This document shows, piece after piece, positions 1,608 through 20,140 of a stretch of DNA of 20,747 bases (positions within the stretch are counted from its first letter, which is position 1; every line of letters starts with the position of its first letter). Position numbers and translations under genes: made by a program. Under the pieces are notes generated by a model. It was not told the DNA's origin. It made no database searches and saw only the letters and a list, made by a program, of their open reading frames with translations. Source of the stretch: a virus; UHGV virus genome UHGV-0017034. The stretch is one strand, 5' to 3'.

Positions 1608-4600
1608 TTACCCTAATTTAGCTTCAATTGCAGCAAGACGTTCACGAAGAAGTTTATTTTCTTCGCTCATTTCTTGGACCGCTTTAATTAAAAGCGCGTT
1701 CACTGCGGAGTTTGAAATTGTTAAAATTTCTTCTGGGTTATCAAAACCACCAATTTTTGCGGTTTTAACAGCTTCCGGTAATACCTCTTGTAAATCCTGT
1801 GCGATAATACCAATCTCATGACCTATAACTTCTCGGTCATTAAGAGATTTAACTTTATCGTAGGTTTTAACTTTGAGTTTATTTACCTTATCCACCGCAT
1901 TTTCTTCGTAATCTTCAACATTAATTTTCAGACGACGATCGGAACGAATATAAACATCGTTAAAGTTTCCGTTACCAGTGGCATGAAATTCTCCACTTGC
2001 ATGGAATTGATAATCAGCACCCTGAACATGAAGAACCGCTGCCGCAGTATTATTACTATCACCGGGACAATGAACGTCCATAGCAGCGATGTAGTTACGC
2101 CCCCAATCAACCGCTTTCCAAATAGCATGAGCACTATCAACGCTTTGTTGACAGTCAACCAACAAACCAGCAGGTCGGTCTCTCCATGCAACATATGCAC
2201 CACCAGAAACCTCACCACGGATAAGTCCTTGATCTGCGGCATAAGGAACACGCCCTTCCAGTTTAATCATCGCGCCCTGGAAGTGATGTGTAAATTGTCC
2301 ACCGTGGTTATTGCGAATATGTAAAATACCCTCATCTGTAGCCCAGATAACAGCCTTTTCCGTATCGCTATCATCTCTAAACCAGACGTGGCGAGCACCA
2401 GCAGAGTTTTTGATAGTAATCCCGGAAGGTCCATGCACAGTAAAAGCGCCAGCAACATCAAACATCAAACTGTTATCTGTCCTACGTTCAGTATAGAAGT
2501 GATAACCTTTGGAATCACCGACTTCCATCACTGCCGCGCGACCAACTTCTGAATTTCCCCAATTATTAATAGAGAATCGTTCAGAGCTATTATTCATCTG
2601 ATTTAGGTATAATGTACCATCAGTGAATGTTTCGCCAAAGAATCTGGTTTTAACGCCGTTAGTACCCCCCACGCGTTCAAATTCAGCCAAGAAACCTTTG
2701 GAATCTCGCATACTCAAAACGTTATTGCGTCCTGTATTACTGTTACCCCAATGGATTAATTCAATATAGTCCATTGACTGACGAGACCCTGATCTAAACA
2801 CCATATTATCTTCGATGCGGGTGCTACCATCAATTCCCAGATGTAAACAGCGTGCGGTAGCTGTGCCACCTAGATCTAATCCACCTTCGGCGAAATCATA
2901 ACTAAATGGTCTACGAGTGTTCCACGTCCCAAAGGAATCTTTTAAATCGGTAGTAAGAATATGGAAGCTAGAACCATCATTACGAAGGATTAAACCATAG
3001 TTACCACCTTTGACAGCCAAACGAGCATTTTCAGATAATGCCACTTCGCTATTCATTACAATTTTCTGGCCTCTACCGCCAGTAATATGTAATTCACCGT
3101 CTTCAATCAGGTTTATAGAGTTTTGACCGTTGTCGTTCCACCAAATAAAATCTTTGGTCTGACCATCACCGAAGCCAAACCAGCCATTACGAACATCTTG
3201 TCCAGTGCGATAATCCATGAAATTAAAATGACTTGATTCGTTTGGTCCTCGACGAATATCAATACCAGAATTTCCAGTAACACCGCCATCCAATGTTAAT
3301 TTCTTGACATGTAACCCGGATGTTGCTGACAGCAATAATTCCTGATTTGTATCTTCGTATCCAGTAGCAAGACGATATGCGTTATCATCAACTGTCTCAT
3401 GCCAGATTGTAGCTGGTGCACAACTACGGAAGCGACGCAACATCTTTTTAGCATTTGTCGGTTGTTCGTTCAAATGCTCAATGTCATATTGGCCTTGATG
3501 ATTGCCAGCAAAATTTAATGTTCCACGGTTGCTAAAGTTATTGAACGATGAAATGTTAAGAGCATCAAAAATTTCGTCTGCAACAGGTTTTTCACCACCC
3601 AGATATTCAGGAGTATCCAACAGGTTTAAAGAAACACCACCGGAAGAAACTTGATATTCTGCTAAAACAAATCCTGTATGTGCACCGTAGTAAGCGTAAA
3701 GATCGTAATTGTCGCCATCGGTTGGAATAGCGCAAAAATGTTGTTCATAATGCCAAATAGTATAATACGCATTGAATACAACACCTTTCGGGCTATTGTT
3801 GCCGCATCGAATCACCAATTCGATAATATTGGCTTGTCCATTATGTCCTACGTTATAACCGTTACCACCAACCAAACGGATCTTAGCCGTGCGACCGTGT
3901 TGTTGTGGCATTGTCAAAGTGCCTAGTTTAAACCAACCACCCTCGATACCAAAATTAAGCGTCTTCTGGAACAGTCGGTCAATTTCTGCTTTCGAATATG
4001 CGCCAATTTCAGCCGGAGTAGGTTTATCACCTTCATGATACATGCGGTGAGAATATGCCAAATGTCCCAATTCATCATAGCCGTATGTTCTTACCGTATG
4101 AACCGGATTAGACCCATAAGTGAACTCAAAACCACGAGCATGATTAACGCCGGATGGGTGCGGAACATGCAAGATCATTGCAATATGACCCGCCAGGTCA
4201 TTCATGCGGAATGCACCAAAGTAGTCAAGATTACGCGCACTCGGATCATCAAAATAGTTTGCGGTCTTAGACAGCAAATAACCATCAGTGTAAGTGTTTA
4301 CGTGCTTTTTGATGTACTTGCCATCACTCGATCCATCGGCTGCATCAATACGGCTTTCTAAACGTGCCAGTTCGGAATCAGTGTAAGACTTGTTATTGTC
4401 AACTTTGCTATGAATTGCTGTATTTTTGGCTTCAACATCACGGGTTAATGCTGCGACGTTATCCGCTGCCTCTTGCTTATTGGCTGCAATCACACCAGTA
4501 AGGTTATTGTAGGTGTCAGTTAACTGATTTTCCGCATAGGCGTGATTTGCTGCGATAGTGCGGTCAGTTTCTGCCTTAATCAAATCAACTTTGTCATTGA

Positions 4601-5132
4601 TTGTTTTGTGATTGCTTGCGATGGTTGCATCGGTACGGGATTTAATATCATCAACTTTTTTATTGATGCGGGTGTCCAGTTCCTGAGTTGCTACAGCAGC
4701 CGCAATTTTATTAGCGTTGATGGTATCCGACAATTCAGCTTTAACACCAGCAAGATCGGAAGCAGCTTTATTTTTATTGGCATCGATTGTCGCGTCGGTT
4801 TCGCGTTTAATTACATCAACTTTATTGTTAATTTCTGCATGATTTGCTGCGATAGTAGAATCAGTAGTTTGTTTAATTTCATCTACTTTAGCGTGAATAT
4901 TGCGGTCATTTACTGCAATTGTGCTATCCAATTCTTGTTTGTTAGCATCAACTTTAGATTCTAGTGCCGCGTGAGTTTCAGGAGAAACAGAGATTTGAAC
5001 TACTTCATGATCTCGGTCTTTGGTGAAAATAACATGGTCTTTAAGGTTGATTGCTACCTCACCGACCTGTAATTGTTCCGGCGTTGGTTTTTTGCCAGAA
5101 ACATTTGTTCGTTTAAATTGGATCGACTGCAT
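1608..5132 (-). CDS. Fiber protein (1174 aa) with N-terminal coiled-coil repeats and C-terminal S74 intramolecular-chaperone autoprotease domain
   Basis: Long ORF with GAGGTGA RBS; residues ~50-260 are ~22-aa repeats (D-x-T-I-A-A-N-H...K-V-D-x-I-K); internal GYHFYTERRTDNSLMFDV resembles the P2 gpH / T4 gp37-type distal fiber region as recalled; C-terminus SDRRLKINVEDYEENAVDKVNKLKVKTYDK...LLRERLAAIEAKLG matches the S74 chaperone domain of endosialidase / T5 L-shaped fiber type. Confidence 0.85.
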   Translation of the reverse strand: MQSIQFKRTNVSGKKPTPEQLQVGEVAINLKDHVIFTKDRDHEVVQISVSPETHAALESKVDANKQELDSTIAVNDRNIHAKVDEIKQTTDSTIAANHAEINNKVDVIKRETDATIDANKNKAASDLAGVKAELSDTINANKIAAAVATQELDTRINKKVDDIKSRTDATIASNHKTINDKVDLIKAETDRTIAANHAYAENQLTDTYNNLTGVIAANKQEAADNVAALTRDVEAKNTAIHSKVDNNKSYTDSELARLESRIDAADGSSDGKYIKKHVNTYTDGYLLSKTANYFDDPSARNLDYFGAFRMNDLAGHIAMILHVPHPSGVNHARGFEFTYGSNPVHTVRTYGYDELGHLAYSHRMYHEGDKPTPAEIGAYSKAEIDRLFQKTLNFGIEGGWFKLGTLTMPQQHGRTAKIRLVGGNGYNVGHNGQANIIELVIRCGNNSPKGVVFNAYYTIWHYEQHFCAIPTDGDNYDLYAYYGAHTGFVLAEYQVSSGGVSLNLLDTPEYLGGEKPVADEIFDALNISSFNNFSNRGTLNFAGNHQGQYDIEHLNEQPTNAKKMLRRFRSCAPATIWHETVDDNAYRLATGYEDTNQELLLSATSGLHVKKLTLDGGVTGNSGIDIRRGPNESSHFNFMDYRTGQDVRNGWFGFGDGQTKDFIWWNDNGQNSINLIEDGELHITGGRGQKIVMNSEVALSENARLAVKGGNYGLILRNDGSSFHILTTDLKDSFGTWNTRRPFSYDFAEGGLDLGGTATARCLHLGIDGSTRIEDNMVFRSGSRQSMDYIELIHWGNSNTGRNNVLSMRDSKGFLAEFERVGGTNGVKTRFFGETFTDGTLYLNQMNNSSERFSINNWGNSEVGRAAVMEVGDSKGYHFYTERRTDNSLMFDVAGAFTVHGPSGITIKNSAGARHVWFRDDSDTEKAVIWATDEGILHIRNNHGGQFTHHFQGAMIKLEGRVPYAADQGLIRGEVSGGAYVAWRDRPAGLLVDCQQSVDSAHAIWKAVDWGRNYIAAMDVHCPGDSNNTAAAVLHVQGADYQFHASGEFHATGNGNFNDVYIRSDRRLKINVEDYEENAVDKVNKLKVKTYDKVKSLNDREVIGHEIGIIAQDLQEVLPEAVKTAKIGGFDNPEEILTISNSAVNALLIKAVQEMSEENKLLRERLAAIEAKLG
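1611..1943 (-). other. S74-type intramolecular chaperone domain (C-terminal ~111 aa of the fiber), predicted to be auto-cleaved
   Basis: Domain begins at SDRRLKINVED, with the conserved Ser-Asp-Arg-Arg-Leu-Lys start and a terminal coiled coil. Confidence 0.65.
4355..4985 (-). repeat. In-frame ~66-nt (22-aa) tandem repeats encoding the fiber coiled-coil shaft
   Basis: Successive units DSTIAANHAEINNKVDVIKRET, DATIASNHKTINDKVDLIKAET, DRTIAANHAYAENQL and others, read from the translation. Confidence 0.6.
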
Positions 5133-11077: not shown

Positions 11078-12982
11078 TTAGAACGATGTTATCCAGCTAC
11101 GGCCTCTATTTGGACGTCTGACGATGTTTTGACGTTGTGGTCGTGTGATTGGCTTAGTTTCTTCTATTTGCTCGTTAGATTGCGATTTAGGAGCTTTTAC
11201 GGGTTCTTCGACAACACGGTTTAAGCTGTCTTTCATTGCAATGAGTTTATCCCATGACATTTTTGAAAGAACGTAGCGAGAAGCCGCTGTAGCATACACT
11301 GCGCAGTCGAGCGCCTCGTTCCTAACGCCTGGGTTCTTTACCCATCTCACGCCAGTAGTAGTACGCTTGACAGATTCACTTAAAAGCTGATCGAGATAAT
11401 CATCAGGAACGGTTCCTGATATTTCTAAGCTAATGTGAGGATTGTCTTTCAGGTTTCTAACCAACATTTCACGAAATGCAGTTTTACCCACGTTAACACC
11501 CAACATAAGCAATTCATGACCACCTGTGCGGGTAGGTTTAACCGGAATGATCGGAGCGTTACCAGCAGAACTACCTTTGATAGCGTGTAAGTTCTTCCAC
11601 TTGCCGCAAATACGGTATCCAGCTTGAGTGAATCGACCGTTCGATGTATCAAGGAAGCTGGCGAGCATAGGAACACGATCACCCGATACAGTAGTAAATT
11701 TGGTTTTATGGAAGTTGATTAATCTATCCCATACAGGGGATTCATATCGTTCACAGTTATGATCGTAAAAGCTGCGATGATCCAGAATATAAATCTTATC
11801 CTTTGCCACGCCCATGATTGTAGTTTCTGCGCGATCTAATTGCTGGTCAGTACCCGCACACAAGAAAATCACGTCATCAGGGATATTCTCGATAGAAACA
11901 TCTGTTTTTAGTTGTTCCAGTTCATTTGCTTCTACTGCCGTGTCCTGATCGTCGTATACCTTGCCTAACACGGTGTTATAAAATGATTGTAAATCAAAGG
12001 ATTGCCACGCATGACTAAAATCAACCACACAAGCGCGGATCGTGCTGAAAGGTGAATACAGACGGCTGATCCAGAATCCTGCTACCTCACTTTCACGGGT
12101 TGCTCTCCACTCTCCTTGTGCCACCGCCCTGATCCGCTCTCCTTCTGTCCATGCGTTCTTACAGTGGGGGCAAATATAACGAGCGGTATCAGGATCGGGT
12201 AAGTTCTTACCATCAATGTTACGCCATTCAAACTGTACGTTTTCCCACTCGATCACCTGGTGTCTACCGCAATGAGGACACGGAACAAAAAACATACGCA
12301 TATCGCTTGATAACCATTGCTGGTTAATGCTTCCGAGCTTACTGGTCGGGGTACTGGATACGACTAATCGGCCTTCATCGCCAAAGGTAGTTAAACGGTT
12401 AGCAGCCAGTGCCACCGGATCACCTTCTTCTGAGGCTGTAGCAGCATCGATTTCGTCAAGCAGTCCGACCTTTGCTGTCTTACCGCGTAGGGTTGATGGA
12501 CTAGTAAGCGATACCATATAAAGGAAGTGGTTTGATTTGAGCTGGAGCTGATTGTTGTTATTAACAGAATTGCGATCATTCTTGTCTGTAACCACGTCTT
12601 TTAATGCATCACATGCTTCGATAGACGGTCGGATCTTACCCGCGAGATATTGAGACATTTCTTTAGCGGTTGATTGTCCGATAATCATATTGCATGGATC
12701 GTTAGCCATCTGGTTAAATAGGATGCCGTTCAAGATGGTAGTCTTTCCGATCTGCGCACTGGTCATCAGAACATACTTTTTCTTGTTCTCAAGGAAAGGA
12801 GCATCAATCATACCTTTCTGGAATGACAGCAATTTAACTTTATCCCCAGCTTGAGGACCATCTACCAGCACCATATTCGCTTCGCACCATTCAGAAGGAA
12901 GGAGCTTAGGCGGTGGCGTAATATATTTGGCTGCATTTTTGAGAATCTTTTTTAATTTGGCCTTATTTGAAATCAGTTTCAT
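11078..12982 (-). CDS. terL: Terminase large subunit, lambda GpA family (634 aa)
   Basis: Walker A-like [10 protein letters not shown]; motifs matching lambda gpA as recalled ([11 protein letters not shown] vs LTAGIDSQLDR; [11 protein letters not shown] vs RRNEALDCFVYA; CPHCG...YICPHC zinc-finger-like pairs); GAGGGT RBS. Confidence 0.9.
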
Positions 12983-13067: not shown

Positions 13068-13670
13068 ATGCTAATTAATCAGCAACAAAGAGATGAATTA
13101 GAATTAGCCTTGTCTTGTACCGATCATGAATATCGTTTACCAGTTAAGCATAAGCATTTAAAAACCGACTACACTACATCTGGCTTTAGTCGTGAGGAAG
13201 CGAAAGAGATTTTAATAGAATTTTACCGCGATAATGGTTATACAGACGTTCACAACTTCTTTAAGAAGCATAGAACATCACATACAGAGTTTCGGAGAGT
13301 CCGAGATTGGTTTGATTTTGATATCAAGCGTTATTATCGAGTGGATGACGGTCCTATCTATCGGTTGCAGTGGAAGCCGATCCGAGAAGTGTTGAAACAG
13401 AAGAGATTGAATCACGCAATTACACGCTATCGTAACGAGGCTTTCAAGAAAGGCTATGGTGATACAAGGGAACTATTCGTTGAACTCGCTAACGTGCGTT
13501 ATAGCCACTATTACAACGATCCTAAAGGGTTCTTTGAAGTGCTTCGCAAGGTTGATATAAGTCGGGGTACATACTATTCACGGTTGAAGAAGTACGGGAT
13601 TAAGGCAGAGTTCTTTATGAGTATTGACGATGGAGAACTTTTTCCGATAAAATGTAAGTCCTCTAAATAA
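13068..13670 (+). CDS. Basic DNA-binding-like protein (200 aa) with a C-terminal HTH motif
   Basis: AAGGGGG RBS 4 nt upstream; C-terminal [16 protein letters not shown] resembles the HTH of the two small paralogs at 13705 and 17159; divergent from terL. Confidence 0.55.
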
Positions 13671-13704
13671 AGGTGAACATTCACTTTAATTTGGAGAAAT
13701 GACT

Positions 13705-13932
13705 ATGACTACTAAAGCTACTCGCGGTCGTCCTGCCCGTTTTAACGCTGAACAGATGGCTGATATTGCCTACGCTTACTATACAGCGGATCGTGGTAAG
13801 GAAGCGAAAGAACAGATTCTTAGTGAACATGGGATCTCAATCGCCCAATTCTATAAGAATATGAAGAAGTTAGACATTAAATTCTATGTTCAGATCGGTG
13901 ATGGTCAGATCGTAGAAGCAACAGGTTTTTGA
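13705..13932 (+). CDS. Small HTH protein (75 aa), paralog of the 17159-17338 product
   Basis: N-terminal ATRGRPARF; HGISIAQFYKNMKKLDIK HTH-like motif; GGAG RBS is correctly spaced for the ATG at 13705 rather than 13699. Confidence 0.55.
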   Translation: MTTKATRGRPARFNAEQMADIAYAYYTADRGKEAKEQILSEHGISIAQFYKNMKKLDIKFYVQIGDGQIVEATGF

Positions 13933-14077: not shown

Positions 14078-14893
14078 TTACAGTCCGAAGTGTTCCAGTG
14101 ATCCAACATTCTGGCGGAGACGTTCAGCCGCTTTATTTTGAATCAGAATAGTGTTATTTGGCTGCGGCAGTTTAAGAGTTGCTTTCTGTTCTTCTTCCAG
14201 AACACCCAATTCCACCAACACCGGAAGCACATCAACAGTAAAAGAAAGCTGATAGTGAGTGTTCATGCTGCAAAACGGTAAAGCGGAATCATTAGCAACA
14301 TACCCACACGGCTTGTTATTTTCATCATAGACGCGTTCAATGTAGCCAGCAGTACGTAAGGCCGTCAGTGCTTCTTTAACCTTCGTAGCGCCCTTTTTAG
14401 CGCCTAACAGACGGGTCATTGAATGGCTATCAACGGATTTGCGATAATGAAGTTCAATCAGTTGTTTGTTTTCGCGAGTTTTCTTTAACGCCAGTTCGAT
14501 CCAGTCGGTTTCTTCAAAGTCTGCATACGGGTTAACGGCTAAACGTTCCTGCCGCAGTTTTTCATTTTCTTCTTTCAGTCGTTTCCATTCCTGAATAACA
14601 ACCATTCGACGCTTAACATCGTAACCAGTGACAAGAGTCAGCGTCATTTCTTCGTCTAAGTGATATTCGGTTTGTTCACGTCCACACTGATCAAGATAGG
14701 TGCGCTCAAAACTGAGCACATCTAATTCCAGAGCATCGAGCATGGATTTAATATCACGTTTAACGTTTTTGTGTTCTTTTCCGGTAAATTCAGCGATCTG
14801 ACGAGAAGACATGGTCAGTGGTTTGGTGTTATCAACAACCAGAGACACGGAAGCAGTTTTAACAGCAGTATTCATAGCAGTAACAGTATTCAT
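14078..14893 (-). CDS. Rha-family phage regulatory protein (antirepressor-like), 271 aa
   Basis: N-terminal LTMSSRQIAEFTGKEHKNVKRDIKSMLDALELD...FERTYLDQCGREQTEYHLDEEMTLTLVTGYD matches the Rha domain pattern as recalled; AAGGGG RBS. Confidence 0.6.
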   Translation of the reverse strand: MNTVTAMNTAVKTASVSLVVDNTKPLTMSSRQIAEFTGKEHKNVKRDIKSMLDALELDVLSFERTYLDQCGREQTEYHLDEEMTLTLVTGYDVKRRMVVIQEWKRLKEENEKLRQERLAVNPYADFEETDWIELALKKTRENKQLIELHYRKSVDSHSMTRLLGAKKGATKVKEALTALRTAGYIERVYDENNKPCGYVANDSALPFCSMNTHYQLSFTVDVLPVLVELGVLEEEQKATLKLPQPNNTILIQNKAAERLRQNVGSLEHFGL

Positions 14894-15893: not shown

Positions 15894-16085
15894 AGTGGAA
15901 ATCCTCTAAAAGAAAGTGAATCAAGTAAGTTCACTATTATTTATAACGAGAATTTTTTATCTATTTGGAAGTGATTGGATTCAGTCGGGCTAAAGCCCTC
16001 CTTCATATATTTGATTAAATCATCATCAAAACGAAGAAGTATCTTTAGAATATAAGAATCTTTCTTTTGGAGAAATTATAATCAG

Positions 16086-16350
16086 GAAGCAATTTAGCAA
16101 CCGAAGGTTGCAATCCCGAAGGGATACCAATACCTTTCTAGAAAGTGATTGTTACTCACTTCGTTCGTTTACTAGAATCAGTTAGTAACTAGTATTAAAT
16201 CCCTTTCTAAGAAAATCCTTTCAAAAGCGAGTGAACGCCGTAGGCGTGAACGTGAGCGAAGCGAACTATCCAATCCCTTTCGAATCCTGCTTGCAGGTCT
16301 TAGAAGGTGTTGATGGGCGCTTCGCGCACGGCTACGCCGTATTCTTTTTG
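16086..16350 (+). ncRNA. Candidate structured noncoding RNA (hairpin-dense, ORF-free, ends at a terminator)
   Basis: Hairpins GCAACC-GAA-GGTTGC (16097-16111), ATCCC-GAA-GGGAT (16113-16125), palindrome CTTTCTAGAAAG (16134-16145), AGTGA/TCACT, ACGCC-GTA-GGCGT, CCTGC-TT-GCAGG; stops in all frames; weak TATAAT at ~16074; 5' end uncertain. Confidence 0.3.
16317..16350 (+). terminator. Rho-independent terminator (plus strand) with tandem hairpins
   Basis: GCGC-UUC-GCGC then ACGGC-UAC-GCCGU followed by AUUCUUUUUG; no protein-coding gene upstream on this strand. Confidence 0.6.
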
Positions 16351-16471
16351 CGAGATCTTTCTTGAACGTAGTGAGAGAAAACGAGCAAAAAGGAGAACGT
16401 TAGTTCGAATTTTATATTCTATGGTCTGTGGGGTGAAATGTCTTTCAAGATCATACACTTATGAGATTGAA

Positions 16472-16593
16472 GTGTAGGGTTAGTGTAGGTGTGTAGGTTT
16501 CATAGTGTAGGTTTGAGGGTGTTATAGTGTAGGTTTACTGACTAGTGTAGTGTAGGCCAATCCCTTTAAAGCGTAGGTTTGTAGTGTAGGTTT
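16472..16593. repeat. Iteron array: about 9 copies of GTGTAGG(TTT)
   Basis: Copies start at 16472, 16483, 16491, 16505, 16527, 16550, 16584, with a variant GCGTAGGTTT at 16571 and a half-site at 16545; spacing often 11 or 22-23 bp; flanked by an AT-rich tract (16594-16700). Confidence 0.7.
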
Positions 16594-16698
16594 TTCATCA
16601 AAAATTTTGATAGAAAATTCTTGTATATTATTTAACCGGAAAATCACCAAAAATCGCTGTAAATGCATGATTTAAAAAGAATTATCAAAAGGTCGCCG

Positions 16699-16707
16699 TG
16701 CTATAAT
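16699..16707 (+). promoter_or_regulatory. Extended -10 promoter element TGCTATAAT
   Basis: TG-n-TATAAT perfect match; -35 weak. Confidence 0.35.
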
Positions 16708-16787
16708 AGGTTATAAAGGTTGATAATCGTTATCCGCCATTTTCACACAAAAATTTTGATAGTCATTTCTCGCTTAGGTCAAGTGCA

Positions 16788-16816
16788 TTGACAACTGTCA
16801 AGGATTATTTTATACT
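16788..16816 (+). promoter_or_regulatory. Sigma70 consensus promoter TTGACA-17-TATACT with overlapping palindrome TTGACA-AC-TGTCAA
   Basis: -35 at 16788-16793, -10 at 16811-16816, exact 17-bp spacer; GTCAAGTGC 9-mer at 16778-16786 shared with the 15358 region. Confidence 0.6.
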
Positions 16817-17158
16817 TTTTCTCATTGGTAGGGGTTGAAATTTTCGAAACAATCCCCATATTGATGATAAACAAGATTTTTTCGTGTATAAATACATGCA
16901 TGAAATGATTGTTCACTTCTGAAAATCCCCTGATTCACTGTTAACACACACAGCACTGGTTAAACACACAGTGCCTTTTCGATTGAATAATGTACGAATT
17001 GATTAATTATTAATCTTCTCTTTAGCAATTCGTGCTCCCGCTGATCAGATATACAGTGGTTTTGCAGGGTTTTCTGAAATGACTTTTATAAATAGAAGTA
17101 TCGAGGGCGAAAAGCTCTTTTTATTGTCCTTATTAATCCACATTTGAGGAATCTACTT

Positions 17159-17338
17159 ATGGCTAGACCTGTTAAGTTTACTCGTGAAATGATTGTTGAT
17201 ATTGCTAAACGCTTTTATGGCGATACTGAACGAGGCGGCGAGAATTTCTTTAAGAAGGAAGGAATTGATAGAAGCGGATTCTATAAGCTAATGAAGAAAT
17301 ACGAAATTCAGATAAAGATTAACGTTCAAGTTTGTTAA
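17159..17338 (+). CDS. Small HTH protein (59 aa), paralog of the 13705-13932 product
   Basis: GAGGAA RBS 9 nt upstream of ATG 17159 (the track ORF begins at a TTG at 17144); MARPVKFTREMIVDIAKRFY...GIDRSGFYKLMKKYEIQ parallels the other paralog. Confidence 0.55.
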   Translation: MARPVKFTREMIVDIAKRFYGDTERGGENFFKKEGIDRSGFYKLMKKYEIQIKINVQVC

Positions 17339-17379
17339 TCCACTTTCACTGAGAATTATACGATGGCTTTAAAAATAAA

Positions 17380-17409
17380 AAGCCTCCCTTGTTGCAGCAA
17401 AGGAGGCTT
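17380..17409. promoter_or_regulatory. Long hairpin between the small HTH gene and the 333-aa gene; terminator-like only in minus orientation
   Basis: AAGCCUCC...GGAGGCUU with inner UUGC/GCAA pairing; plus-strand A-run upstream gives a U-tract only on the minus strand. Confidence 0.4.
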
Positions 17410-17454
17410 GAAATGAACAATTAAAACTAACACAGCATTCAGGAGTATTTATAA

Positions 17455-18456
17455 ATGAAAAATTCTAAGCGCATCACCTTCAACCTGTTTATTAAATCCA
17501 ACGGCAAACTGAACATTACCGTCATGGAAGGTAAAGCAAGCAAACAAGACAAATCCTTTGAAGTAGTATCCGGTAAGACTCTGACCGAAATGCGTCAGAA
17601 TGCTGGCATCAAAGACGGTGCTGAATGGCAGATCACTAACCGTTTCGACAAACGTCACGTTAAACCTACACTGGTAGAAGGTGAATCCGTTTATTGCTTC
17701 GCTCGTGCTGTTAAAGCCGATGAAACTTACTATCTCGCTGTTGTTAAAACTGCTTCCGGCTTCCGTGCTGTAATGCATCACAAGAGCAAGCGTAACGAAT
17801 ACGGCGTAGAGACCCAGGAAGTCGCAAAACGCTTCCGTACTGTTGCTACCGAATCCACTGTAAAGGATGTTTCTGGTACTGTTAACACCGTTAAAGGCGG
17901 TTCCTTCTACAACCACGCATTACAGGTTACTTCCTCCTTCTTCTGCAAAAAAGAAGCACAGAAAGAAGTTGCTCCGGTAGTAGTTGAAGAAGTTAAAGAA
18001 GAAGTTGCAGTGGTTGAATCTTCCGAAGTTGAAGCACTGAAAGCACGCATTGCTGAACTGGAAGCTGAAAACGCATCTCTGAAAGCTGAACTGGCAGCAC
18101 AGGAAACCACTTTCGAAGTAGCAGCGGTTGAAGTTGAAGCAGTTGAAGAAAAATCCATTGATGAAGAACTGGAAGAACTCCTTAACTATCGCTGGGGTAA
18201 CGGTGAAAAAGTAGAACAGGAAGAACAGAAAGAAGCTGATCCGGTAGTAGTTCCGGTTGAAGAAAAATCCGCACCTGTTACTAACTTTGAATCCCTGCGC
18301 AATAACTTTATGGCTAAATTCAAAACCACTTGGGAAGATACCGAAGAAGAACAAGAAGAGATTGAAGTAAACGAAGACGAGATCCGCGAAGCACAGATGG
18401 CACTGCATGACGCTATCTACGACACCAACTACAGCGCCTACGCATACGCAGCTTAA
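17455..18456 (+). CDS. Hypothetical abundant protein (333 aa): N-terminal globular domain plus acidic Glu/Val/Ala-rich coiled coil
   Basis: AGGAG RBS; codon usage visibly different from neighbours (CGT, CTG, GGT, TCC, ACC, GAA, AAA, TTC, TAC preferred), typical of highly expressed E. coli-type genes; leucine-zipper-like EALKARIAELEAENASLKAELAA. Confidence 0.8.
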   Translation: MKNSKRITFNLFIKSNGKLNITVMEGKASKQDKSFEVVSGKTLTEMRQNAGIKDGAEWQITNRFDKRHVKPTLVEGESVYCFARAVKADETYYLAVVKTASGFRAVMHHKSKRNEYGVETQEVAKRFRTVATESTVKDVSGTVNTVKGGSFYNHALQVTSSFFCKKEAQKEVAPVVVEEVKEEVAVVESSEVEALKARIAELEAENASLKAELAAQETTFEVAAVEVEAVEEKSIDEELEELLNYRWGNGEKVEQEEQKEADPVVVPVEEKSAPVTNFESLRNNFMAKFKTTWEDTEEEQEEIEVNEDEIREAQMALHDAIYDTNYSAYAYAA

Positions 18457-18471
18457 TAGAGGGGTGAATCT

Positions 18472-18714
18472 ATGATGAATCAAAACAAAGAATTTCTGGG
18501 TAATCTGATGTTAGAAATTACCAAAATGAAAGAAAGAATGGTAGCGATGGAATCAGAGATTAAAACACTTAAAGCTGATAATAAGGCGTTGAGAAAGTCC
18601 TTAAAGCTGATTGATGAGACTAATGCGGTTATGATGGATCATGTATTCCCTGAGTGGCGAAATGAAACTAAACCTACACAACATAAGAAACTTACACTTC
18701 GAATTGTTGCATAA
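18472..18714 (+). CDS. Small coiled-coil protein (80 aa)
   Basis: GAGGGG RBS; heptad-like MKERMVAMESEIKTLKADNKALRKSLKLI; starts 16 nt after the upstream stop. Confidence 0.55.
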   Translation: MMNQNKEFLGNLMLEITKMKERMVAMESEIKTLKADNKALRKSLKLIDETNAVMMDHVFPEWRNETKPTQHKKLTLRIVA

Positions 18715-19426: not shown

Positions 19427-19978
19427 TTAAGACACATCAAATTCATCGTCTTCTTCTGGTTCTTGTTCCGGTTCATCCATTAATGGTAATTCTTCTTCCT
19501 CGTCTTCTCCCAAATCTGCATTTTCGAACAAGTCCCCTACTTCATTTAAACGACGCTCGATAATCTCTCTTAGCTTATTCTTCAATGTTTTCTGGTCATT
19601 GGCAGATTCGAGAATTTCTAGGGCATCGATTGTGGCGATCTGCAAAATAGTCTGCTTCACTTTCCCGCAATATTCCGCTAGCTCCTGCTCCACATACCCG
19701 ACGGGAATCAGGAGATTCATCGCTTCCTGGTTCTCTCGTTCGGCTGCATCTGCTAATGCTCTCTCACGGCGTAATTTCTCTACGTCGATTTGTTCCTTGA
19801 CAGTAGTTTCTTTAAGCGGGTTGATGATATTTTTCAAGACCCATTCTGTTCCTTCTTTGGCTGGCACGCGGCGGGTATTGGTATTAAATGGCATTCCTCG
19901 TTCTTGCCATTTCTTAGCGGCGTTAATTGTATAGCCGTATAAACGGGAAATTTCTGTAAGGGTTAATTCTTCTTTCAT
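19427..19978 (-). CDS. terS: Terminase small subunit, lambda Nu1-like (183 aa from the RBS-supported start)
   Basis: LTLTEISRLYGYTINAAKKWQERGMPF parallels the lambda Nu1 N-terminal HTH (IFGASIRTIQNWQEQGMPV as recalled); acidic C-terminal tail; GGAGGA sits 8 nt upstream of Met-6 (19978), while the first ATG at 19993 has no SD. Confidence 0.65.
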   Translation of the reverse strand: MKEELTLTEISRLYGYTINAAKKWQERGMPFNTNTRRVPAKEGTEWVLKNIINPLKETTVKEQIDVEKLRRERALADAAERENQEAMNLLIPVGYVEQELAEYCGKVKQTILQIATIDALEILESANDQKTLKNKLREIIERRLNEVGDLFENADLGEDEEEELPLMDEPEQEPEEDDEFDVS

Positions 19979-20089
19979 CCGGTTATCCTCCATTAAATTT
20001 GCGTAAAATTATTTATCTGATCTGCGCATTCAGGAGAGCGCCTAAAACGCTTTATAACGAAGGGAAAGATCGAGGCATGGAAAGGGATT

Positions 20090-20140
20090 GGCGGGTGTTA
20101 ATAGTCGCGTAGCGACCGCGCTGGTGGGCTGCACTGCACC
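20090..20140. other. Candidate cos / packaging-initiation site
   Basis: GC-rich island in AT-rich DNA about 120 bp upstream of the Nu1-like gene, containing the perfect palindrome GTCGC-GTA-GCGAC (20104-20116); GGAAAGGGA-like repeats lie between it and the gene. Confidence 0.25.

Follow-up and report, generated by a model that had tools for sequence, protein, structure and literature searches.

Background

Among the transcripts associated with replication origins are lambda oop and the PR-driven transcription that activates lambda ori, ColE1 RNA II, and the R-loop primers of T4 oriF and oriG. To our knowledge, RB49-like phages of the T4 type are without MotA-type origin promoters, and the mini-hairpin motif that recurs in this work is known to date from no more than a handful of priming and promoter sites.

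Mini-hairpins of the d(GCGAAGC) type are exceptionally stable as DNA, and are known at the complementary-strand origin (oric) of phage G4, in ssiA of plasmid RSF1010, the core of which reads CCGAAGG, and in the promoters of the N4 virion polymerase (PMC13037366). PeSL cassettes of T4-type phages are arranged in the order stem-loop, AT-rich region, promoter-like element (PMC2839356, PMC4122927); they are defined by a near-consensus TTGACA-N17-TATAAT promoter (PMC4122927) and have been linked by their authors to hoc (PMC2839356). The put element of HK022 measures ~70 nt; it contains a triplex and two stems that are long and bulged, and acts on the zinc-binding domain of the RNA polymerase beta' subunit (PMC9378689).

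Here we describe a hairpin-dense region of UHGV virus genome UHGV-0017034 and compare it with these systems. Throughout, "the window" denotes the whole stretch of 20,747 nucleotides that was analysed.

Genomic setting

The window represents an E. coli prophage of ~35 kb that has hicB as its insertion site and is carried by 58 of 5426 complete genomes; its 1.56-kb intergenic region (15894-17454) is likewise matched in 58 of the 5426 complete E. coli genomes, chromosomal every time. Further homologs of the element were found in 29 IMG/VR contigs and in 11 metagenome contigs, the latter being the true homologs left after filtering of a scan of metagenomes and genomes with short DNA patterns, most hits of which were chance matches. 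In strain DEC5A (NZ_CP038394) the ~35-kb prophage splits hicB, encodes a large serine recombinase, and is annotated with lysis, tail and head genes; neither a replication gene nor a phage primase is annotated in the prophage in this record. The terminase genes and a Rha/Ant-like gene of the window are listed in Table 1. The window does not represent a T4-type phage; its nucleotide matches in the phage collection are to tail-fibre genes only.

The intergenic region gave no megablast match in phages or plasmids, a terL-based search of GTDB species representatives returned no relative, and literature queries with the exact sequence and with the hicB prophage gave nothing relevant. The prophage family is uncharacterised, and the element marks a control or candidate origin region that has escaped annotation. 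It outdoes the flanking genes in conservation: at several loci its identity is 100%, against only about 60% for the neighbouring 152-aa gene.

Table 1. Features of the hairpin element and its surroundings (positions in the window)
Feature	Position	Strand	Remarks
Large terminase, lambda-type	11078-12982	minus	PF05876/PF20454
Rha/Ant-like protein	14078-14893		profile match
GC stem-loop GGGC-TAAA-GCCC	15986-15997	plus	precedes the AT-rich upstream element
AT-rich upstream element	16002-16085	plus
Palindrome TTTGAT-N9-ATCAAA	16010-16031	plus	within the AT-rich upstream element
-10-like hexamers TAGAAT and TATAAT	16046-16051 and 16077-16082	plus	within the AT-rich upstream element
H1, GCAACC-GAA-GGTTGC	16097-16111	plus	core CCGAAGG
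H2, ATCCC-GAA-GGGAT	16113-16125	plus	core CCGAAGG; in tandem with H1
Module 2a, imperfect CTAG palindrome	16125-16161	plus	overlaps the next hairpin
12-bp palindrome CTTTCTAGAAAG	16134-16145		part of a longer, imperfect palindrome with CTAG at its centre
Hairpin AAGTGA-TTGTTAC-TCACTT	16143-16161	plus	7-nt loop
Module 3	16170-16224	plus	conserved
TACTAG/CTAGTA stem of module 3	16170-16175 with 16189-16194	plus
Pyrimidine motifs of module 3	16198, 16215	plus	AATCCCTTTC, then AATCCTTTC
Module 4a	16225-16316	plus	start of the type-specific part
Hairpin ACGCC-GTA-GGCGT	16235-16247	plus	module 4a
Mini-hairpin GC-GAA-GC	16256-16262	plus	module 4a
Second copy of AATCCCTTTC	16272	plus	module 4a
Hairpin CCTG-CTTG-CAGG	16286-16297	plus	module 4a
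Hairpin GCGC-TTC-GCGC	16317-16327	plus	minus-strand loop reads GAA
Hairpin ACGGC-TAC-GCCGT, then ATTCTTTTTG	16328-16340 (with tail to 16349)	plus	minus-strand loop reads GTA
Iterons, about nine (8-9) direct repeats	16468-16593	plus	consensus TAGTGTAGGTTT; type-specific
AT-rich segment, 27% GC	16597-16700		directly right of the iterons; begins with palindrome ATCAAAAATTTTGAT
333-aa orphan protein, then 80-aa coiled-coil protein	17455-18714	plus	type co-varies with the iterons
Small terminase (terS), Nu1-like	19427-19993	minus	phrog_57

Anatomy of the hairpin element

The region 16086-16350 is non-coding, carries eight to ten short hairpins and ends on the right in a hairpin with a T-tract. An earlier note on this DNA, made from the sequence alone, had counted at least six perfect short hairpins; the hairpin finder lists eight, among them the two adjacent GAA-triloop stems (16097-16125) and the 12-bp palindrome described there. 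The same note placed a rho-independent terminator, composed of tandem hairpins and a U-tract, at 16317-16350, with no plus-strand CDS for more than 2 kb upstream. Both statements hold for the window: the last hairpin and its tail (16328-16349) are flagged by the terminator scan and show the GC-rich stem, 3-8-nt loop and U-run directly 3' of the stem by which such terminators are recognised, and, going upstream, the first plus-strand ORF, whatever its length, ends at 13932. The motif AATCCCTTT was said to recur at 16198, 16276 and 16559; the first and last positions are correct, the middle copy actually lies at 16272, and a further copy is present at 20081 on the minus strand. Four copies compare with 0.33 expected (12-fold), a number reached in none of 100 shuffles, and the copy at 20081 is not conserved among homologs.

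A covariance-model search against Rfam, which the earlier note had proposed, yielded no match at the gathering threshold anywhere in the window; with permissive filters the best hits had E = 1.4-8, far under gathering scores, and none lay on the plus strand within 16086-16350. ARAGORN detected no tRNA or tmRNA in the window. The hairpin element belongs to no described RNA family.

Comparison across alleles

Alignment of the homologs, including distant relatives identified via the few homologs of the downstream 333-aa protein (loci L042 and L043) or by sensitive BLAST (L276 and L277), reveals a modular element. Module 1, comprising H1 and H2, is near-invariant; module 2 comes as allele 2a or 2b, which carry different hairpins in the same position; module 3 is conserved; and module 4, from about 16225 on, exists in at least four unrelated versions, all of them with short GC-rich hairpins. 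The prophage element is a mosaic, the recombination breakpoints of which coincide with the module borders.

The hairpins are retained at equivalent positions despite sequence replacement, in at least five lineages. H1 is represented by four stems (GCAACC-GAA-GGTTGC, GCCCC-GTA-GGGGC, TGCAGC-TTC-GCTGCA and GACGCTC-CCT-GAGCGTC), and H2, H5, H6, H8 and the mini-hairpin by two to four stem versions each, all of them base-paired. For instance, H2 appears in other alleles as TGC-GAA-GCA, the mini-hairpin GC-GAA-GC as AC-GAA-GT in L042 and L043, CCTG..CAGG as CCAGC..GCTGG in L042, and the type B counterpart of CGCC-GTA-GGCG is CGTC-GCA-GACG. In L034 the site of module 2 is occupied by a perfect 46-nt hairpin with a 21-bp stem and a CTAG loop. 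The natural variants of the TACTAG/CTAGTA stem amount to one U.G and one A.C pair. In six type-A-like sequences the model of local hairpins leaves 98.3% of cells paired, compared with 14-50% for slid controls, a modest statistic in that most pairs are invariant within class A and the score is reached by 31 of 500 shuffles. The array of local hairpins is conserved and has been kept through changes on both arms. Since G.U pairs are nearly absent from the conserved stems, the stems themselves point to neither strand.

Folding and transcription signals

Folding of 16086-16350 gives -90.2 kcal/mol for the plus strand, at a z-score of -6.2 compared with -2.9 for the minus strand, and in six of seven alleles the plus strand out-folds the minus strand relative to shuffles. 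The minimum-free-energy structure pairs 16243-16263 with 16318-16338. This long-range fold receives a penalising covariation term from RNAalifold (+1.34), with compensatory change in one of 37 pairs, and several of its pairs are broken in L018, L042 and L043 by changes that suit the local model, namely a loop change from TTC to TAC and the paired changes G to A and C to U inside the mini-hairpin. As the strong z-score is largely due to the long-range fold, the solid better-than-chance observation is the density of local hairpins. A conserved global RNA fold is thus not supported by the comparison, which indicates that only local, near-perfect palindromes have been kept. The reading of the region as a structured regulatory RNA or an RNA-protein scaffold, given in the earlier note, is supported in part: the local hairpins are conserved, but a long-range fold specific to RNA fails the covariation test, and the hairpins that are kept are strand-symmetric palindromes with loops that suit the DNA mini-hairpin rule on either strand. 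An RNA as the functional molecule is thus putative.

Upstream of the array, the GC stem-loop at 15986-15997 recurs in homologs with other sequences (GGGC-AAA-GCCC, GGC-TTC-GCC, GCCCC-GTA-GGGGC), and the palindrome of the AT-rich element is inverted in L212. The AT-rich element contains no -35 box and its best promoter score is 8/12; no sigma-70 promoter of 9/12 or better was found for the window's copy of the hairpin element. Nearly all alleles have -10-like hexamers at a distance of 40-53 nt upstream of H1, and L277 alone possesses a promoter TTGACA-17-AAGAAT (10/12 to sigma-70), located 17 nt upstream of the first hairpin and aimed at the hairpins. Past the last hairpin, a plus-strand T-rich tail, ATATC(C)TTT(T)G, is present in types A, B, C and D, in L043 and in the copies from RB49-like phages described below. 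Only allele class A and L043 possess the canonical terminator: in type B none is flagged and the T-run begins 11 nt past the stem, and L042 has no T-run after its last hairpin. The terminator argument of the earlier note thus applies to the window's allele and does not extend across alleles. Because of the T-rich tail, the -10-like hexamers together with the L277 promoter, and the better folding of the plus strand, we infer that the hairpin module is probably transcribed rightward.

Iterons and the co-varying 333-aa protein

About 120 bp to the right of the hairpin element lies an array of direct repeats, the place of which is taken in other types by repeats of GGGGCAA, CGGGGA, GGAATCTTGGGGATTT or TAGTGCAGGG. 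The repeats are followed by an AT-rich segment, a candidate DNA-unwinding region, and further right by a conserved stretch of ~850 nt with two good promoters and a 59-aa gene, which leads up to the gene of the 333-aa protein, 1.1 kb downstream of the hairpin element. Analysis of 34 loci (18 of type A, 15 of type B and one of type C) shows that, without exception, a change of iteron type is matched by a change of module 4 and of the N-terminal type of the 333-aa protein, while the ~850 nt between the repeats and the 333-aa gene are 87% identical across types; for module 4 and the iterons, which have no conserved DNA between them, the co-variation can be mere linkage. Variants of terS and of the 152-aa, 59-aa, 77-aa and Rha-like proteins do not follow the iteron type. 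The iteron array and the co-varying orphan protein, which are the context that matters most, had been missed by the earlier note.

The 333-aa protein has no match in Pfam or PHROGs, a profile search of the PDB gave coiled-coil matches only, and tblastn against plasmids and phages was empty. An exhaustive HMMER search found six relatives among 1.84 billion representative proteins, and a word-indexed homology search only near-identical proteins of E. coli and Shigella; the single-sequence AlphaFold model, with a pLDDT of 45, is unusable.

The hallmarks of an iteron-type origin are at least three direct repeats, AT-rich DNA next to them and an initiator that belongs to the repeats. Here eight to nine repeats, a flank of 27% GC and a co-varying protein are seen; homology to Rep proteins is absent and DnaA boxes are not enriched. 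The pairing of repeats with the 333-aa protein follows the pattern of iteron/initiator specificity known from the O/ori types of lambdoid phages, and no other candidate for replication is seen among the annotated genes of the prophage. On the strength of the architecture and the co-variation, we give the iteron array perhaps an equal chance of being or not being the phage replication origin, and regard the 333-aa and 80-aa proteins as a candidate pair of iteron-binding initiators.

A proposed transcribed module beside a probable origin

The explanation that we prefer, tentatively and at somewhat less than an even chance, is that of a transcribed hairpin module flanking an iteron-type origin. 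The module would be part of an early-right control region, between divergent early promoters and the iterons. Host RNA polymerase would start in the AT-rich element (16002-16085) and transcribe rightward, producing an RNA of about 270-300 nt that would fold into a string of short local hairpins and, in the window's allele, would end at the tandem hairpins and U-tract (16317-16349), about 120 bp before the iterons. Transcription could thereby open and supercoil the origin flank without crossing the iteron-protein complex, combining activation with insulation in the manner of lambda ori. Where the flank is single-stranded, the palindromes may form C-GNA-G mini-hairpins of very high stability, of which the plus strand has four and the minus strand two, and these could act as SSB-resistant landmarks for priming or helicase loading.

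The predicted transcript would share with lambda oop, ColE1 RNA II and the T4 oriF and oriG primers a promoter aimed at or beside the origin and the nature of a structured non-coding RNA of a few hundred nucleotides. It differs from them in that the prophage terminator separates the transcript from the iterons, and there is no sequence similarity. Because the terminator intervenes, the prophage RNA would not itself be an R-loop primer at the repeats, unless the terminator is read through.

Resemblance to antiterminators is limited. As in HK022 put and the boxB hairpins of lambda nut, two adjacent stem-loops would lie near the start of an early transcript, and the GAA loops recall the GNRA-like loop of boxB; however, the prophage H1 and H2 are perfect and measure 15 and 13 nt, there is no boxA near them (the sole boxA-like sequence lies 900 nt downstream), and no N-like protein was found. 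We rejected an antiterminator of the put/nut kind for the misfit in size and shape and the lack of a nearby boxA. A cos or TerS-binding site was also considered, as AATCCCTTTC resembles the lambda R sites and has a copy upstream of terS, and was rejected, as that copy is not conserved and terS co-varies with nothing. Retrons, CRISPR-like arrays and type III antitoxins were rejected as well, no reverse transcriptase, Cas or ToxN-like gene being annotated in the prophage.

Mini-hairpins and the possibility of a purely DNA element

The loops of the array exhibit a common signature. Triloops are almost all GNA, or TNC (which is GNA on the other strand), closed by C:G; across alleles this applies to 15 of about 17. 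Both strands of the 20.7-kb window contain 39 C-GNA-G cores, seven of which fall within 16086-16350, where 0.5 would be expected (about 14-fold enrichment, Poisson p = 3e-7), making this the window's densest 260-nt stretch. In the left part the cores lie on the plus strand (16101, 16116, 16238, 16256), and the strong right-hand cores on the minus strand (16319, 16331). The core of both H1 and H2 is exactly that of RSF1010 ssiA.

These features raise the possibility, to which we assign a clearly lower probability than an even one and which we consider on balance unlikely, that the array functions only as DNA, its hairpins acting as single-stranded priming or primosome-assembly signals of the ssi type, or as cruciforms, on both strands of the origin flank, with any transcript being incidental. 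The enrichment of C-GNA-G cores and their switch from the plus to the minus strand speak for this, as does the failure of the long-range RNA fold. Moreover, the H1 loop, which lies on the opposite strand in L042, the 46-nt hairpin of L034 and the perfect Watson-Crick palindromes of the stems fit hairpins selected as DNA more naturally than as RNA. The arrangement also resembles RSF1010 oriV, in which iterons are accompanied by ssiA and ssiB on opposite strands and ssiA contains CCGAAGG (PMC13037366). As in the ssi sites of RSF1010 oriV and in G4 oric, the prophage hairpins are short, GC-rich and capped by C-GNA-G, and as in RSF1010 they occur on both strands beside iterons; the prophage array differs in having eight to ten hairpins instead of two, in lacking a cognate primase (RepB'), and, from both RSF1010 and G4, in being bracketed by a promoter-like element and a T-tract. 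At the level of sequence, then, the array looks ssi-like, with C-GNA-G cores in hairpins beside a candidate origin, and a role in priming is putative.

A purely DNA element leaves unexplained the plus-strand T-rich tail, conserved in almost every allele as well as in the copies from the T4-like phages, and we count this tail in favour of an RNA because a strand-neutral function of DNA does not predict it. Equally unexplained are the promoter-like element and the canonical L277 promoter aimed at the hairpins; in addition, the prophage has no annotated primase, and the plus strand folds better in six of the seven alleles.

The possibility of a free-standing small RNA

We judge it improbable that the element encodes a free-standing, trans-acting small RNA, that is, a terminated RNA of ~265 nt that base-pairs with mRNAs of phage or host (the one for the 333-aa protein, for example) or sequesters a protein by means of its AAUCCCUUUC repeats. 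The terminator with its U-tail in the window agrees with such an RNA, and so does the repeated pyrimidine motif, which looks single-stranded and is 12-fold enriched, with A-rich spacers; but the fourth copy of the motif is not conserved, and neither is the terminator across alleles. The best lead to a target is a perfect 13-nt complementarity between 16332-16344 and 17797-17809, corresponding to codons 115-119 of the 333-aa gene, which extends to 14 nt at the same codons in L043, where the homolog is 66% identical, and module 4 does co-vary with the 333-aa protein. However, this complementarity is absent from L042 and from types B and C, lies inside the terminator hairpin, and was noticed post hoc, and the two lineages that possess it share local sequence and hence are not independent. 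Duplex energies with all translation-initiation regions were no better than background, in an RNAduplex scan that was uninformative in that the energies were dominated by huge internal loops.

Relatives in RB49-like phages and likeness to PeSLs

Positions 16002-16085 of the window match unannotated intergenic DNA of 58 Krischvirus genomes with 76-85% identity. In these RB49-like phages the copies are located after a gene terminator near hoc, where RB49 has two in tandem, and between the tail-fibre genes 35 and 36. After the element, these phages too have GC-rich hairpins, two or three in number, whose triloops are GNA or TNC (ACTCC-GTA-GGAGT, TCGC-GAA-GCGA, GTGCC-TAC-GGCAC, CCGC-TAC-GCGG), and then the T-rich tail. 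The upstream palindrome exhibits a compensatory change, TTGAT/ATCAA versus TTGGTT/AACCAA.

The likeness to PeSLs suggests a further alternative, to which we attach even less weight than to the small RNA: the element could be a promoter/stem-loop cassette reduced to its stem-loops, a mobile regulatory or recombination module that provides termination or insulation as well as homology for shuffling. The stem-loop at 15986-15997, the AT-rich region and the promoter-like element come in the PeSL order (PMC2839356, PMC4122927), and about 80 nt of actual sequence are common to the prophage and the RB49-like phages. The sites near hoc and between tail-fibre genes are among those that the PeSL authors call plastic; both kinds of element are associated with mosaic, shuffled regions, as is evident in the prophage from the breakpoints at module borders and the inverted L212 palindrome. 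Unlike the PeSLs of RB49 and phi1, the prophage element is without a near-consensus sigma-70 promoter: TTGACA-N17-TATAAT is absent from the window's element and from the RB49-like copies read, the best promoter scores 8/12, and 10/12 is attained only in L277. The element leads into hairpins and a terminator, not into an ORFan or any other ORF, and resides in a temperate prophage. Furthermore, the hairpins occupy fixed positions across old, diverged alleles, which argues for selection on the array rather than for a scar. Because the defining promoter is missing, we file the element as PeSL-like, not as a PeSL.

Finally, a degenerate coding remnant, which the earlier note had named as an outcome that would refute it, or an unannotated small ORF is extremely improbable: mechanical ORFs do exist at 16231-16365 (44 aa, GTG start) and 16307-16477 (56 aa), but their DNA is type-specific and types B and C have not kept them, stops are present in every one of the six frames of 16086-16350 (2-9 per frame, in line with the earlier note), homologs are separated by frame-breaking indels of 1, 3 and 7 nt within the ORFs so that no reading frame is kept, and PGAP annotates nothing at the locus in the records examined. 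Preserved in E. coli genomes, IMG/VR and metagenome contigs alike, with hairpins that survive sequence replacement, the element is by its sequence neither spacer DNA, as the earlier note had also held, nor a decayed gene.

Implications

It is conceivable, if rather doubtful, that the upstream element, the GNA-capped hairpins and the T-rich tail constitute a portable cassette in which an origin or priming function is coupled to transcription, and which passes between temperate prophages of E. coli and lytic phages of the RB49 kind, having been expanded in the prophage and joined to an iteron/initiator specificity module of at least five interchangeable types. A bolder variant, in which an infecting RB49-like phage fires the prophage copy, is speculative. 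Should the element turn out to be merely a terminated leader or an insulator of the PeSL type, it would be ordinary.

If the transcribed module beside an iteron-type origin is the right reading, the locus would control a phage replicon that annotation has missed altogether. Such a replicon would join an orphan initiator, with specificity types numbering at least five, to a cassette built of mini-hairpins, and would have no helicase, loader or primase that can be recognised. The recruitment of the host replisome by a temperate phage of 35 kb would become open to experiment, and the alleles would provide a ready-made natural collection of exchangeable modules for origin and initiator. The cassette common to the RB49-like phages ties temperate to lytic regulatory DNA, and may give a hint of where the origins of that group, as yet unmapped, are located.

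Organization of the control region

At least five unrelated sequence types of the iteron array occupy the same position in related prophages, and the orphan 333-aa protein, a candidate iteron-binding initiator, together with the 80-aa coiled-coil protein encoded directly after it (17455-18714), co-varies perfectly with the iteron type. The array and these co-varying genes are separated by 850 nt of conserved DNA.

Features of the prophage control region and related loci (window coordinates unless a locus is named)
Feature	Position	Strand	Description
AT-rich element copies	16002-16085; L011 1490-1790; L012 1500-1625
Iteron array	16468-16593		~9 repeats of TAGTGTAGGTTT
Palindrome, two copies	16597-16611, 16746-16760		(A)TCAAAAATTTTGAT, flanking the promoter sites
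Extended -10 promoter	16706-16714		TGCTATAAT
Sigma-70 promoter	16788-16816		TTGACA-17-TATACT, 11/12
Terminator-like hairpins	~16958-16985, 17103-17119		leader of the 59-aa/333-aa operon
boxA-like sequence	17016-17028		TTCTCTTTAGCAA, same long leader
Intrinsic terminator, strong	17380-17409	minus	AAGCCTCCTTTGCTGCAACAAGGGAGGCTT, then T-rich sequence; between the 59-aa and 333-aa genes
Promoter-like site	17462-17491	minus	just within the start of the 333-aa gene
GC-rich stretch	~20100-20130		GTCGC-TAC-GCGAC hairpin, upstream of terS
L034 hairpin			46 nt; 21-bp stem CGAAGGGATACCAATCACTTT, CTAG loop

Hairpin element and its AT-rich neighbor

The AT-rich element to the left of the hairpin-dense stretch, about 80 nt long, is common to 58 genomes of RB49-like phages (Krischvirus); in it, a palindrome precedes ACGAAGAA, GATCTTTAGAAT and TAATCA. 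The Krischvirus copies, which are unannotated and in some cases arranged in tandem, likewise lead into hairpins with GNA/TNC triloops and a tail rich in T. Within the hairpin element, 13 nt of the terminator region (16332-16344) are perfectly complementary to 17797-17809 in the 333-aa gene, at codons 115-119 (NEYGV); the complementarity to the same codons extends to 14 nt in the related locus L043, and is absent from L042 (another relative) and from types B and C. In a further relative, L034 (IMGVR_UViG_2778260996_000020), the homolog of 16117-16162 carries a perfect hairpin in place of the imperfect palindrome of module 2a (16125-16161), a change that points to template-switch conversion of the DNA itself.

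Terminases, tail fibre and integration site

The genes for the large (gpA-type, 11078-12982) and small (Nu1-like, 19427-19993) terminase subunits are not adjacent, and the 6.4 kb between them is filled with regulatory and early genes. The GC-rich stretch upstream of the small-subunit gene, terS, may represent a cos site. The tail-fibre gene (1608-5132, 1174 aa) exhibits 79-94% nucleotide identity to gp37-like distal long-tail-fibre genes of T4-type phages, to which the prophage is otherwise unrelated. A 559-aa serine recombinase is used for insertion into the antitoxin gene hicB of a hicAB toxin-antitoxin locus (L010 27655-30985; L001 25465-25773; NZ_CP038394.1), leaving hicA intact next to the truncated hicB.

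Putative early promoters and a candidate antisense RNA

The stretch to the right of the iterons that holds the two promoters and the paired palindrome is conserved in all types and has the appearance of an early-right promoter region under operator control; the -35 box of its sigma-70 promoter lies within the palindrome TTGACAACTGTCAA. Further downstream, the boxA-like sequence, which differs from the rrn boxA (TGCTCTTTAACAA) at two positions, is invariant across types and occurs twice in L042. A repeated motif, G/ARPxxF and then YxxxKKY-I, is common to three small proteins encoded on the plus strand (200, 77 and 59-64 aa; 13068-13932 and 17144-17338); the 77-aa protein has an AT-hook-like RGRP core. 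None of them has a match in Pfam or PHROG, and we regard them as candidate regulators of this region.

On the minus strand, the hairpin of the intrinsic terminator is retained across types. Together with the promoter-like site, this terminator would define a predicted antisense RNA of ~80 nt that covers the 333-aa gene's ribosome-binding site, an arrangement resembling plasmid copy-number control.
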